This document shows positions 11,862 through 15,903 of a stretch of DNA of 22,943 bases, in pieces; the stretch's first letter is position 1, and every line of letters starts with the position of its first letter. The notes beneath the pieces were generated by a model. That model was not told the origin of the DNA. It saw nothing but the letters and a program-made list of their open reading frames with translations, and did no database searches. The position numbers were made by a program, and so were the translations under genes. The stretch covers positions 1-22,943 of the forward strand of contig CAZAPD010000122.1 of the NCBI GenBank assembly GCA_964487115.1. Reading direction: 5' to 3'. The stretch is from an uncultured Thermococci archaeon (GTDB lineage Archaea; Methanobacteriota_B; Thermococci; Thermococcales; Thermococcaceae).

Positions 11862-13272
11862 CTCCCTTCACCTGTCTGTCAAGGATTTCATTGATGTACT
11901 TGATGAACTCGTTAATTCTGCTTTTAGGAAATCTGATCCCTGCCGCTATGGCATGTCCTCCTCCTTCTCCACCAAGCTTCTCTGCCGCTTCTCTCAAGGC
12001 TTCACCGAGATGATAACCCTTGGACAGTGCCTTCTCTGTTGTCCTTGCAGAGGCCTTTACGAGCTTTTCATCCTCCTCACTGTCTGCTATTATGATAACA
12101 GGTTTTTCTGGCTTAGCCAACCCTGAGTTTATTGCTATGTTTGCGGCTATGCCAACAAGAGTATCTCTGATATTTCTGCCAACATAGAACACATAGGCAT
12201 GCTCTCCCTCATCAGCGCCGTTCCAGTTCTGGATTATGTATCTTCTCGCCTCAATTTGCTCTCTCTTGTAGTTATCAAGCATCTTTCTGGCCCTTTTGTA
12301 TGCTTCTGCATCTCCAAGGCAAATAGCAACGCCAAGTGTTCCGGCGTTCAAACGACCTGTTGCATTTAGAAGAGTAGCGAATTCCCTTGCCTCATGTCTT
12401 GGATCACCTTCGGGATAAAGCTTGCTGATGACAACATCACCAATAAGTCTGTCGATTGCCTCTTTTGGAGCATTATGTTTTATCATATGGATTACTATAG
12501 CATCATGGAGTTTCCTCTTCTCCTCTTCTCTCAGCTGCCAGTATTTCATATCAGGATCGAAGCCTTTAGCCCTGAGAAACTCGATTGCTTTCCTTTCATC
12601 CCCTGTTATTTCTGGAATCTCAGGATTTGTTGAGTAAGCTAACATCTGTGAGAGCTTTCTGCTTTCCCTACCGAAGAGTCTAAGTTCCTTGCGAACTTCT
12701 ATAATGCCAAGTTTCTCTCCGTCTTCGATGATGTCAATATTCATGCCGTGAAATGTGCCATCCACTTCCTGCATGTCGCCAACAGCTCCAACAAGTGCGA
12801 GATAGCTCAAATCCTTGTTTCCATCGTTCATTGCAACCGCAGTAAAATATGCAACCCCAGAACCACTTAAGTCTCTGATGCTGTCTGCTCCATAGAGAGT
12901 TGGATTCACGATGAGATGGGAATCATTTAAGAATCCATCTTTTTCCGGAGGGTGGTGATCAACAATGAGGACGTCAGAATCTTCGAGATATTTCTCAATC
13001 AGAGTCATGGAGCCACTCCCGAGATCGCTAAAAACATAAATTCTGTGCTTTTCCTTGGCAAGCTCCTTTATGAAGTCTTCACTGAGTTGTTTGACTATAC
13101 TGAGCTGGAAATTCCCACTCTCTCTGATGGTGGCTTTTGCCAGAATGCCTCCGGCTGTTATCCCGTCCGCATCCCTATGGGAGATCAACCGTATAGTGTG
13201 CCCTAACTCAATGTGCATCTTAATCAGTTCCGCCCCTTCCCTCGCCTTTTCTAAGAATGCACTCTTATCCAT
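11845..13272 (-). CDS. gan: DHH/DHHA1 RecJ/Cdc45-like nuclease (GINS-associated nuclease GAN)
   Basis: Motifs 'SHRDADG', 'FSDLGSG', 'IVDHH', 'GAVGDMQ' and '[12 protein letters not shown]'. The rps15-recJ-pcc1-rps3ae gene order supports the call. Confidence 0.9.
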
Positions 13273-13302
13273 TTTATCACCCAGAAAGAAGAAGGAAAGG
13301 GG

Positions 13303-13758
13303 TTAACGAACGAGTAGCTTGGCCTGTTCCGGATCGTATCTCCACTTGGCCGGAAGCTTACCTGTTCTTCTGTAGTACTTGACGAGACGTCTTATCTTAC
13401 TTTCGGTTAGCTGCAATCCACGCCTTGAGTGCTTATCCTTTGGATGTAATTCAAGATGCTTCCTGAGCTTAACGGCCTTTCTTATGAGGAACATTAAATC
13501 CTCAGGAATCTGTGGTGCCAGACCGTTTTCCTCGAGTATTTGGGTTATTTTTTTCCCTGTAATCAGCTTAACGCTTGGAATGCCGTACTGATCCCTGAGA
13601 ATCGTTCCTATCATTGCTGTGCTGTGCCCCTCTTTTCTAAGCTTTATAACAAGGTTTTCAACCTCTTCGGCCGTATATTCCACCCAAGTGGGTGGAGCAG
13701 TCCTTGGAGGTCTTTTTGAGCCTGATTTGCCTCTCTTTCTCGCGTGTATCCTTGCCAT
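13303..13758 (-). CDS. rps15: 30S ribosomal protein S15 (uS15)
   Basis: '[17 protein letters not shown]', '[12 protein letters not shown]' and '[23 protein letters not shown]'. GGAGGTG RBS (13765-13771) fixes the start at 13758, giving 151 aa. Confidence 0.98.
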
Positions 13759-13775
13759 GTCATACACCTCCCGGT

Positions 13776-13799
13776 GACGGCCAGCTATTGCCAGCCGTC
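13776..13799 (-). promoter_or_regulatory. Stem-loop in the rps15 5' UTR, candidate ribosomal-protein leader
   Basis: GACGGCUGGC-AAUA-GCUGGCCGUC forms 10 consecutive pairs including tandem U.G/G.U. It lies between the TATA box and the SD sequence. Confidence 0.55.
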
Positions 13800-13825
13800 C
13801 CTTCACGTTGGGAATTGAGGCGAGG

Positions 13826-13839
13826 TTTAAAAAGGTTTG
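13826..13839 (-). promoter_or_regulatory. BRE/TATA promoter of the rps15 cluster
   Basis: The - strand reads CAAACC-TTTTTAAA, about 70 nt upstream of the rps15 ATG. Confidence 0.6.
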
Positions 13840-13891
13840 CCCGGATGATTTATCAACCAAAACGGTTTTAGGTTAACAACTCTCAGTAGTC

Positions 13892-14587
13892 ATGCAGGAT
13901 CTTAAAGAGCTGGATCTTTCGAAGGGGGAATGCTCCAGAAAAGGGCAGTTCAGCTAAGAGAATCCGGAAAGAAGGTGTGAAGGGACGAACAGCATTCCGT
14001 TAGTGAAACTAACAGCTATCAGTACAGAATTCATCTGAAGGTTGTGGATCAGATTTTGCTAAGAGTTTTGGAAAAGGCTTTAAAGGCCATTGGAACAACC
14101 AAAACGGGGTTTGAACATAATAGGACAGGCTGACAGATGGTGTGTCAGGGTCACCAACAAGGAGCTGTTCATGTTCCTAAAGGGTCCGAGGGAGAACTCC
14201 TGAAATTGCCCGCGCCTATCCCAGAGAATTCTTGGGGGGCTCCTTTAACAGTGAGGGAGTGTGTTCGTGGACAAAAGAAACACGAGAAGGACATCGATTG
14301 TTGCGGATAACTATAATTTTGAAGCGTTAGAACTTTGTAGGGATTTGCTATGGCATCTTAGGATACACTCAACTGTACATCTCTCCAAGTGGAAAGATGC
14401 TGAAGTAGTTTTCGGGGAAAGAGGTATGGATACAACTCCGAGTTTATATAGGATAGGCATCCTCCGGAAGGATGGCGTTGCAAAGTTCGCTGAAACCATT
14501 GGCATGACAATCAACAGAAAGCAGAAAAAGCTTGAAACTTTCCTCGCATCATATTACAATAGAACATATAGCGGGGGGTGGATTTGA
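13892..14587 (+). pseudogene. Degenerate free-standing LAGLIDADG homing endonuclease
   Basis: Fragments in shifting frames: MQDLKELDLS (13892); MLQKRAVQLRESGK (13930); YQYRIHLKVVD..EKALKAIG (13996-14130); ADRWCVRVTNKELFMFLKGPRE (14129); EIARAYPREFLGGSFNSEG (14202-14258, a decayed FLxGFFDSEG motif); then the ORF at 14261-14587 ending FAETIGMTINRKQKKL, a typical LAGLIDADG C-terminus. Confidence 0.78.
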
Positions 14588-14643
14588 ACCACCGACCTCC
14601 GGGTTATGAGCCCGGCGGGCACTCCTAGCTGCCCCACCCCGCT
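14569..14643 (-). tRNA. Initiator tRNA-Met (CAU), no encoded CCA
   Basis: AGCGGGGTGGGGCAGCTAGGAGTGCCCGCCGGGCTCATAACCCGGAGGTCGGTGGTTCAAATCCACCCCCCGCTA folds as a cloverleaf with A1:U72, GGG/CCC at the base of the anticodon stem, a CAT anticodon and a TTCAAAT T-loop. Confidence 0.97.
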
Positions 14644-14674
14644 GTGTGACCCGATAAGTCCTATCAGGTGAGGG

Positions 14675-14712
14675 TTTATAAGCTTTACCCTCTTGAGGAT
14701 AAAGCTTTAAGC
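14675..14712. promoter_or_regulatory. Back-to-back BRE/TATA promoters for the tRNA (-) and the aconitase X operon (+)
   Basis: The - strand reads GTAAAGCTTATAAA (14675-14688) and the + strand reads ATAAAGCTTTAAGC (14699-14712). Confidence 0.6.
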
Positions 14713-14742
14713 ACAATCTTCTAACTTTCATCTGGTGATGAA

Positions 14743-15903
14743 ATGCATCTCACTCGAGAGGAGGAGCTTGTCCTAACCGGCGAATACGGTTATCCACTTC
14801 AAAAGGCTATGGAGATACTCGTGGCCTTAGGTGAAATCTACGGTGCAGATAGGCTTATCCCAATAAAAAGTGCTCAAATAGCAGGAGTTTCTTACAAAAA
14901 TCTTGGAAAAGCTGGGATGGAATTTCTAAGGGATTTAGCCGATGCTGGGGCCAAGGTTTCGGTTTATACTACCCTCAACCCTGCAGGAATCGGCAATGAG
15001 GACTTCATGGAAAAGCAAAAACAGATTCTGGATATTTACAGAAGAATGGGAGTAGAGACGACGTCCACATGCACACCGTATTACGGTGCGAATCTCCCGA
15101 AATTCGGTGACCATTTGGCATGGAGCGAAAGTTCTGCTGTTAGCTTTGCTAATTCTATTATTGGAGCGAGAACAAATCGTGAGGGTGGTCCTTCAAGTTT
15201 GGCTGCAGCTATTGTGGGTAAAACTCCAAATTACGGTCTTCATCTTGACAAAAACAGGAAGGCAACCGTAATTGTTGAGATTCAAGCAGATATGAGAGGC
15301 TTCCTTGATTACAGCCTGCTTGGATATTATCTTGGCAGAACTCTCGGGAATGATGTTCCCTATATACGGGGCATCAAGCCTGAAAAAGTTGAATATCTCA
15401 AGGAACTCGGCGCTTCTATGGCAGCTACAGGTTCAGTTGCTCTCTATCACGTGGAGGGAGAGACTCCGGAGTACAGAAGGGCTATTGATGATAATCTCGA
15501 AAAGATTGTAGTCGAAAGGACGGGGCTGAAGGAAGTTCAGGAGAAATTCAACTCCGAGTGGAGTGAAATTGATTTAATAGTGATCGGTTGTCCCCATGCA
15601 TCTCTTCAGGAAGTTAAGGAGATAGCCGAGCTACTCAAAATGCGTGGAAAACCTCTGAAGATACCCATTTACATAACTGCAAGTAGGGCAGTTAAGGCCC
15701 TGGCAGATTCCTTAGGATACACGGAAATAATTGAGCGCTACAACGGAAGAATACTCACCGATAGCTGTCTGGTCGTCTCTCCGATTGATAAGTGGTTCAA
15801 TGGCATAGCCACTAACAGTGGGAAATCCGCGTTCTATTTTGCATCTTTTGGGTTTAATGTCAGACTTGACGAGGTTGAAAAACTCATAATGGAGGCACCT
15901 TAG
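14743..15903 (+). CDS. Aconitase X large subunit (phosphomevalonate dehydratase large subunit, DUF521)
   Basis: 'GVSYKNLG', 'TTLNPAG', 'STCTPY', 'WSESSAVSFANSIIGARTNREGG', 'IGCPH', 'DSCLVVSP' and 'ATNSGKSAFY'; three conserved Cys residues. Confidence 0.93.
   Translation: MHLTREEELVLTGEYGYPLQKAMEILVALGEIYGADRLIPIKSAQIAGVSYKNLGKAGMEFLRDLADAGAKVSVYTTLNPAGIGNEDFMEKQKQILDIYRRMGVETTSTCTPYYGANLPKFGDHLAWSESSAVSFANSIIGARTNREGGPSSLAAAIVGKTPNYGLHLDKNRKATVIVEIQADMRGFLDYSLLGYYLGRTLGNDVPYIRGIKPEKVEYLKELGASMAATGSVALYHVEGETPEYRRAIDDNLEKIVVERTGLKEVQEKFNSEWSEIDLIVIGCPHASLQEVKEIAELLKMRGKPLKIPIYITASRAVKALADSLGYTEIIERYNGRILTDSCLVVSPIDKWFNGIATNSGKSAFYFASFGFNVRLDEVEKLIMEAP

Follow-up and report, generated by a model that had tools for sequence, protein, structure and literature searches.

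The DNA between rps15 and the initiator tRNA gene of an uncultured member of the Thermococcaceae holds the pseudogene of a stand-alone endonuclease with an HTH domain and two LAGLIDADG motifs (positions 13892-14587 of the window, by which we mean the whole 22,943-nucleotide stretch of DNA analysed). Its relatives form a family of free-standing cassettes whose home in the Thermococcaceae is the 3′ end of the initiator tRNA gene, and we consider it likely that these spread by intronless homing, with the copy in the window as a dead remnant. The relic itself is ordinary and represents one late stage of a cycle; its family is unusual.

Pieces of the LAGLIDADG gene fill the plus strand of the interval, in a genome assembly of 132 contigs that is 96% complete. 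To the left, on the minus strand, lies an open reading frame (13303-13758, start codon ATG at 13758-13756) that we take, from its sequence and synteny, to be rps15; it is the neighbour here and not the constant partner of the element. The BRE/TATA-like promoter of rps15 (13826-13842, minus strand) is conserved in the DNA alignment, and the exchanged cassette begins, on its left side, just beyond it. A remnant of the BRE/TATA-like promoter of the element itself (13859-13872, plus strand) lies approximately 20-25 nt ahead of the ATG; its position matches that of the A-rich and TTTTAA motif upstream of the ATG in 49 intact genes, which points to a promoter function. The gene remnant then runs, all on the plus strand, through an N-terminal part with the first HTH helices (13892-13973, with one frame change near 13912-13933), a 21-nt island from the W-C-K-G-T region (13974-13994), the first LAGLIDADG β-sheet and linker (13995-14228, with frame changes near 14052, 14075, 14123 and 14195), a degenerate LAGLIDADG motif 2 that keeps the catalytic glutamate (FLGGSFNSEG, 14229-14258; FLRGFFDSEG in the family) and a last open frame of 108 amino acids that contains the second β-sheet and a compensated frame change near 14410-14444 (14261-14587; Pfam LAGLIDADG_3, E = 0.019, below the cut-off). 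The TGA stop of this frame (14585-14587) falls 19 nt inside the antisense strand of the tRNA. The preliminary description had placed the ATG (13892), the motif and this stop at exactly these positions.

On the right, the interval ends at tRNA-Met(CAT) (14569-14643, minus strand), which is 75 nt long, uninterrupted by an intron and the sole Rfam match in 13200-14800. In the alignment it shows the A1-U72 pair and the three G-C anticodon-stem pairs by which initiator tRNAs are recognized. PMC5393177 also gives A1-U72 as an initiator tRNA feature. The place of the encoded CCA (14566-14568, minus strand) reads TAT here and forms the right boundary of the cassette. The T-arm (14577-14593, minus strand) carries the variant stem GGTGG/CCACC in place of the commonest, GGAGG/CCTCC, and provides candidate target half-sites. 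Beyond the tRNA and divergent from it lies the gene for the large subunit of aconitase X (14743-15903, plus strand; Pfam AcnX, E = 1e-147), given for context.

Both an intact relative (tblastn, E = 5e-19) and the family profile (E = 4e-26) match the interval, bearing out its LAGLIDADG similarity. In frameshift-aware alignments the remnant is 43-54% identical to five intact relatives over approximately 220 codons, with 6-9 frame changes and the loss of approximately 50 residues, and the stitched reading holds a stop at 13978-13980; the preliminary description had counted at least four frame changes and an in-frame stop. Its proposal that an internal deletion removed motif 1 is resolved, in a DNA alignment with four intact relatives, into two deletions of approximately 71 and 79 nt (approximately 150 bp together) that flank the retained island 13974-13994 and that took away the HTH recognition helix and motif 1. 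With motif 1 deleted and motif 2 degenerate, the copy in the window no longer has two recognizable LAGLIDADG motifs. Contigs of three studies show the same broken allele without gaps wherever they cover it, which rules out sequencing or assembly error as the cause of the breaks: a contig of run X1, possibly the source of the assembly, spans the whole interval; two pieces from contigs of run X2, a different study, together account for 13860-14598 with one difference and no gaps; and contigs of run X3 cover two parts of it with no differences. At 14235 the window has G and both X1 and X2 have A, so that the motif letters given earlier hold for the window and become FLRGSFNSEG in these runs; the G is either a strain variant or an assembly error.

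Intact members of the family have open frames of approximately 270-370 amino acids in which an N-terminal HTH precedes two LAGLIDADG motifs. Pfam LAGLIDADG_3 scores above its cut-off in all four intact relatives searched and no intein domain was found in any of the four; NCBIfam matches to WhiA are far below the cut-off, leaving weak WhiA-domain matches only. The structural model of one intact relative (pLDDT 88) has I-DmoI as its best fold match (E = 4.5e-9), and I-DmoI is also the best sequence match among solved proteins (E = 9e-7, approximately 16% identity). Of the 49 intact genes, 48 retain the aspartate of motif 1, 48 the glutamate of motif 2 and 47 both acids. Values of dN/dS lie between 0.09 and 0.26 in 18 of 19 pairs (the nineteenth is almost without changes), which indicates that intact copies are under purifying selection. 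Each intact gene has its own A-rich or TATA-like motif approximately 20-30 nt ahead of its ATG and the cassette is therefore self-contained; the transcript is probably leaderless. Automatic names in NCBI and UniRef call family members in Thermococcus and Pyrococcus 'LAGLIDADG family homing endonuclease' or 'DNA endonuclease', names that do not reflect the site, and a Pyrococcus protein, which we compared by name only, is tabulated as 'endonuclease COG3780' in PMC1852104.

A profile built from seven intact relatives and run over 97 Thermococcaceae genomes gave, among the matches listed, 65 loci in 64 genomes when strong matches and short-frame remnants were taken together. At 64 of these 65 loci, the distance to the 3′ end of an initiator tRNA-Met gene is at most 131 bp; the remaining one runs off its contig, in a genome in which a contig end interrupts the tRNA too. 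All further matches listed sit in open frames of 587-2740 amino acids, and we read them as inteins. For the complementary view we assembled 97 tRNA loci. They come from 95 genomes, two bins contributing two loci each and G103 and G111 lacking a usable one, and a local search at these loci added three small remnants. The element is present at 67 of the 97, about two thirds: 47 loci have type A, which is convergent with the tRNA (32 intact), and 20 have type B, which lies in tandem downstream of it (17 intact); 30 have none, including the short element-free intervals of G085 and G057. The tRNA association and the presence-absence polymorphism of homologues anticipated by the preliminary description are thus both found. 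Eighteen of the 67 copies are broken, some down to short tails, a rise-and-decay pattern expected of homing genes. There is one copy per genome, except in one bin that is 53% complete. Two initiator tRNA loci each were seen in G006 (C16 and C23, with one A and one B gene) and G074 (C43 and C49), both probably mixed bins. On the side away from the tRNA the neighbour is rps15 in g12 and in most of genus g1, with other genes in g9, g10, g11 and G009, so that the constant partner of the element is the tRNA; linkage to rps15 instead of the tRNA is ruled out by these differences. The reading of a stand-alone relic docked at a tRNA accordingly stands, and its generalization to tRNA 3′ ends does not, as the Thermococcaceae site is the initiator alone. 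Read-through into the tRNA is real as well; it is shared by 12 of the 32 intact type A genes and so is not a product of decay. No match was found at E = 1e-25 in 36 genomes of other Thermococci families.

Beyond the Thermococcaceae, the gene adjoins the initiator tRNA at two loci in Methanocaldococcus metagenome-assembled genomes, in a Nanoarchaeota genome and in a Woesearchaeota metagenome-assembled genome; at five weaker loci outside the family ARAGORN found no tRNA. We scanned 70 of 76 metagenome loci, the other six being repeats of loci already in the set. Among close relatives, 16 of 20 loci flank tRNA-Met and the other four are cut by contig ends. Distant relatives have a tRNA nearby at 20 of 33 loci (Rfam), and at 16 of these 20 it is an intron-bearing tRNA 131-197 bp downstream of the gene. 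The wider protein family comprises 1787 representatives at E = 1e-10. The phage collection held no close relative, only a weak match of 37% cover in three Brevibacillus phage records, and the plasmid collection held no match.

How such a family might persist at one essential gene can be sketched as follows. When intact, the cassette consists of its own promoter and an HTH-LAGLIDADG gene, approximately 0.9-1.1 kb in all. The intact, monomeric enzyme would cut chromosomes that enter the cell, or sister copies, at the 3′ end of the tRNA or beside it, in a putative zone made up of the T-arm, the acceptor strand, the CCA and the terminator junction, and cuttable alleles would be those without a cassette or with a rival one. 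Repair from the carrier, through homology in the 5′ part of the tRNA and in the conserved far-side promoter, would copy the cassette and, with it, the tRNA tail as the carrier has it. A tail with paired T-stem changes, or without the encoded CCA, would be hidden from the enzyme and still give a working tRNA; a CCA-adding enzyme can restore a CCA that is missing from the gene. With no cleavable allele left, the copy in the window would then have decayed. At the DNA level the T-arm forms an inverted repeat with 7 bp at its centre, and the two half-domains of a LAGLIDADG enzyme read sites of inverted-repeat shape. Both halves are altered by a paired change of the T-stem, and the fold of the tRNA is kept. 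Given homing, the chance that the cut falls within the T-arm is about even. A more specific version, to which we give somewhat less than an even chance, is that rival free-standing LAGLIDADG lineages cut the single initiator tRNA gene of archaeal chromosomes at its T-arm or CCA end and that their conflict drives the paired T-stem changes and the CCA loss in this otherwise invariant gene, each lineage sparing its own allele and cutting others, with neighbouring cargo riding along. The supported interpretation of the preliminary description, a relic of a selfish element that homes without an intron, intein or integrase, is refined here by the competition of two orientations of the family for the initiator tRNA site.

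Variation in the tRNA is concentrated in its tail. The 95 full-length initiator tRNA genes of the Thermococcaceae align without an insert; 94 of them agree throughout the first 50 nt and all of them in the T-loop, yet the T-stem has seven alleles, all paired. On the host tree (made from EF-2 alone, a single gene with uneven base composition), the numbers of T-stem changes in the initiator and in each of five control tRNAs from the same genomes are 17 versus 2, 13 versus 1, 13 versus 2, 10 versus 3 and 4 versus 1. The initiator gene lacks its CCA at 28 of 67 element loci versus 1 of 30 others; that single other locus, reclassified after the count, retains the promoter of a type A gene and its C-terminal tail. 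Six control tRNAs encode CCA in 186 of 187 genes. In the source genome itself, 40 of 44 ARAGORN tRNA rows have CCA, and tRNA-Leu(TAG) (C63:23028-23112) and tRNA-Thr(GGT) (C71:10501-10574) end in TCA instead. Across 45 genomes, CCA state requires 5 changes on the gene tree of the element versus 10 on the host tree, and T-stem alleles require 15 versus 17, hardly a better fit; G018 and G004 have element proteins that are 97% identical and T-stems that differ. An element-free clade of 15 genomes shows no T-stem and no CCA change over 0.93 branch-length units, whereas its sister clade of 32 genomes shows eight of each over 1.95 units (rough p of 0.02, a single contrast). The tail is altered at 49 of 67 element loci versus 6 of 30 others, a difference that is not significant in independent pairs. 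For CCA loss alone such pairs count 3.4 for and 0.0 against (median p of 0.25, not significant). The CCA is absent in 11 of the 12 cases in which the gene extends into the tRNA, so CCA loss may partly be a by-product of gene-tRNA fusion that a few clades have inherited.

The same data bear on a different location of the cut. A homing element that cuts outside the tRNA, in the terminator, the spacer or the far-side promoter, would use the tRNA as an anchor for repair, and the variety of T-stems would reflect co-conversion and a relaxed constraint on the initiator. We regard this as unlikely, although several observations agree with it. The commonest T-stem with CCA flanks 11 of the 49 intact copies, whose tRNA end is thus unchanged, and the commonest tail sequence alone is therefore not the cut site of every member; independent pairs on the host tree show no link between the T-stem variant and the element (0.8 the same way and 1.0 the opposite way, of nine pairs; not significant); and in genus g1 the type B genes stop within the rps15 promoter or continue through it. 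An initiator T-stem, moreover, need not be tuned to an elongation factor, and T-stem pairs tune EF-Tu binding in bacteria according to PMC3239215. Against a cut in the surroundings, the spacer and the far-side gene vary between genera and the link to the tRNA persists as far as Methanocaldococcus and DPANN. Relaxed constraint should also act in the element-free clade, in which no T-stem has changed.

Movement of the family between hosts favours homing over a resident host gene. Types A and B form separate clades on the gene tree and are scattered over the EF-2 tree: for the 45 genomes common to both trees, orientation requires one change on the gene tree and ten on the host tree, and genus requires eight and four, respectively. 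Three pairs of hosts that are 98% alike in EF-2 carry element proteins that are just 49-61% alike. Other pairs show the reverse, with dS of 0.005 for the element versus 0.14 for EF-2 in G018 and G053, and 0.135 versus 1.09 in G049 and G046. G013 and G070 are identical upstream of the tRNA and 96-99% identical in rps15 and its leader, and differ in T-stem, CCA and the whole interval between; in this pair, as in G073 and G089, identity is lost right after the rps15 promoter, the left edge of the cassette. Judged by the same edges as in G013 and G070, the cassette in the source genome would span about 13843-14568. On these comparisons, family members have replaced one another between close hosts, moved recently between species and frequently decayed. 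It is consequently improbable that the gene is a domesticated WhiA-like DNA-binding protein or host nuclease, kept for a host function and lost occasionally: its purifying selection, its presence at 67 of 97 loci and its N-terminal HTH with weak WhiA-domain matches would suit such a role, yet the catalytic acids are kept, breaks occur in 18 of 67 copies, the element is absent from 30 of 97 loci, the gene tree is discordant with the host tree with swaps between hosts 98% alike, and two opposite orientations occupy one site.

An integrating element with an att-type duplication was considered and rejected, as there is no duplicated tRNA tail and the cassette has room for one gene only. At all 67 element loci, no copy of at least 12 nt of the last 35 nt of the tRNA was found within 1.3 kb (the longest is 11 nt), and the window has no repeats above chance. 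The absence of intein, intron and integrase proposed by the preliminary description therefore fits everything found: no intein domain in four relatives, an uninterrupted tRNA and no att-like copy. That the gene is a passenger without homing of its own in a tRNA-linked recombination hot spot, the remnant of an integrase-driven island, is very improbable: other genes, such as that for a small secreted protein, do share the interval with or without the nuclease, but tail copies of that length and close relatives in phage or plasmid collections were not found, and a passenger would not stay confined to one tRNA across four archaeal lineages.

Homing of this kind has a close parallel in phage T4. 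According to PMC2330249, the free-standing endonuclease SegB recognizes a site that includes the T-loop motif and makes its cut at the 3′ ends of tRNAs, with a preference for positions after CCAR; the review PMC2988022 defines intronless homing with co-conversion. As these sources describe SegB, a GIY-YIG enzyme of the T4 tRNA cluster, it shares with our element an intergenic position without intron or intein, adjacent tRNA genes and a patchy occurrence among relatives. Unlike SegB, the element has LAGLIDADG motifs and an N-terminal HTH, resides in cellular chromosomes, is attached to one essential single-copy tRNA and comes in two interchanging orientations; the activity of SegB has been tested, whereas homing of the element is deduced from sequence. 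I-DmoI, a monomeric archaeal LAGLIDADG endonuclease, is its best match in sequence and fold and has the same two motifs with acidic residues, but is intron-encoded (title of PDB 1b24) and aligns over profile positions 69-221 only, without the HTH. Intein endonucleases of the Thermococcales (PI-PfuI and its kin) have the same Pfam domain, LAGLIDADG_3, and give weak profile matches in long frames; the element differs in lacking a splicing domain and an extein and in having its own promoter and start codon. Endonuclease inserts in the mitochondrial atp6 of Allomyces and rps3 of Ophiostoma bring a replacement 3′ end, and the displaced end stays as a duplicate. The element resembles these fungal inserts in that an essential gene has one 3′ end in carriers and another in empty alleles, and differs from them in that no displaced duplicate of the tRNA tail was found at element loci.

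Free-standing homing genes in phages and intronless homing from phage crosses were known before. Within the literature searched, a full-text collection with few subscription papers, we found no account of the element, its site or the tRNA changes. New here are the culturable lineage, the one exclusive site, the two rival orientations and the control-tested acceleration of change in the tRNA tail. The family provides a candidate for intronless homing on the chromosome at about two thirds of the Thermococcaceae loci examined. Members of the Thermococcaceae can be cultured and transformed, and the system opens to experiment the question of whether an essential tRNA is shaped by a selfish nuclease. 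It also offers a reason why one tRNA gene has lost its CCA, and supplies approximately 50 intact, predicted thermostable meganuclease candidates with natural site variants.

Several further features of these loci were seen. Type B genes of genus g1 (L004, L005, L006 and L009) either stop in the TATA box of rps15 or run on through its leader into the first rps15 codons, on the same strand. A protein of 155-190 amino acids with an N-terminal hydrophobic leader, lamin-tail-like by eye, is encoded in the rps15-tRNA interval of L021, L024, L031, L052, L046 and others, either alone or adjoining the nuclease gene; it is possibly cargo or a replacement allele. Insertions split the nuclease gene in L104 (G054; approximately 1.8 kb) and L107 (G080; approximately 0.25 kb). 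In a distant clade of the family (L320-L365, 16 metagenome loci), the intron-bearing tRNAs were missed or misnamed by ARAGORN and found by Rfam; their anticodon is GGC by eye, and some have a second insert in the D-arm region. The rps15 5′ leader (13759-13826), which has no Rfam match, is strongly conserved across Thermococcus and may be a regulatory leader.
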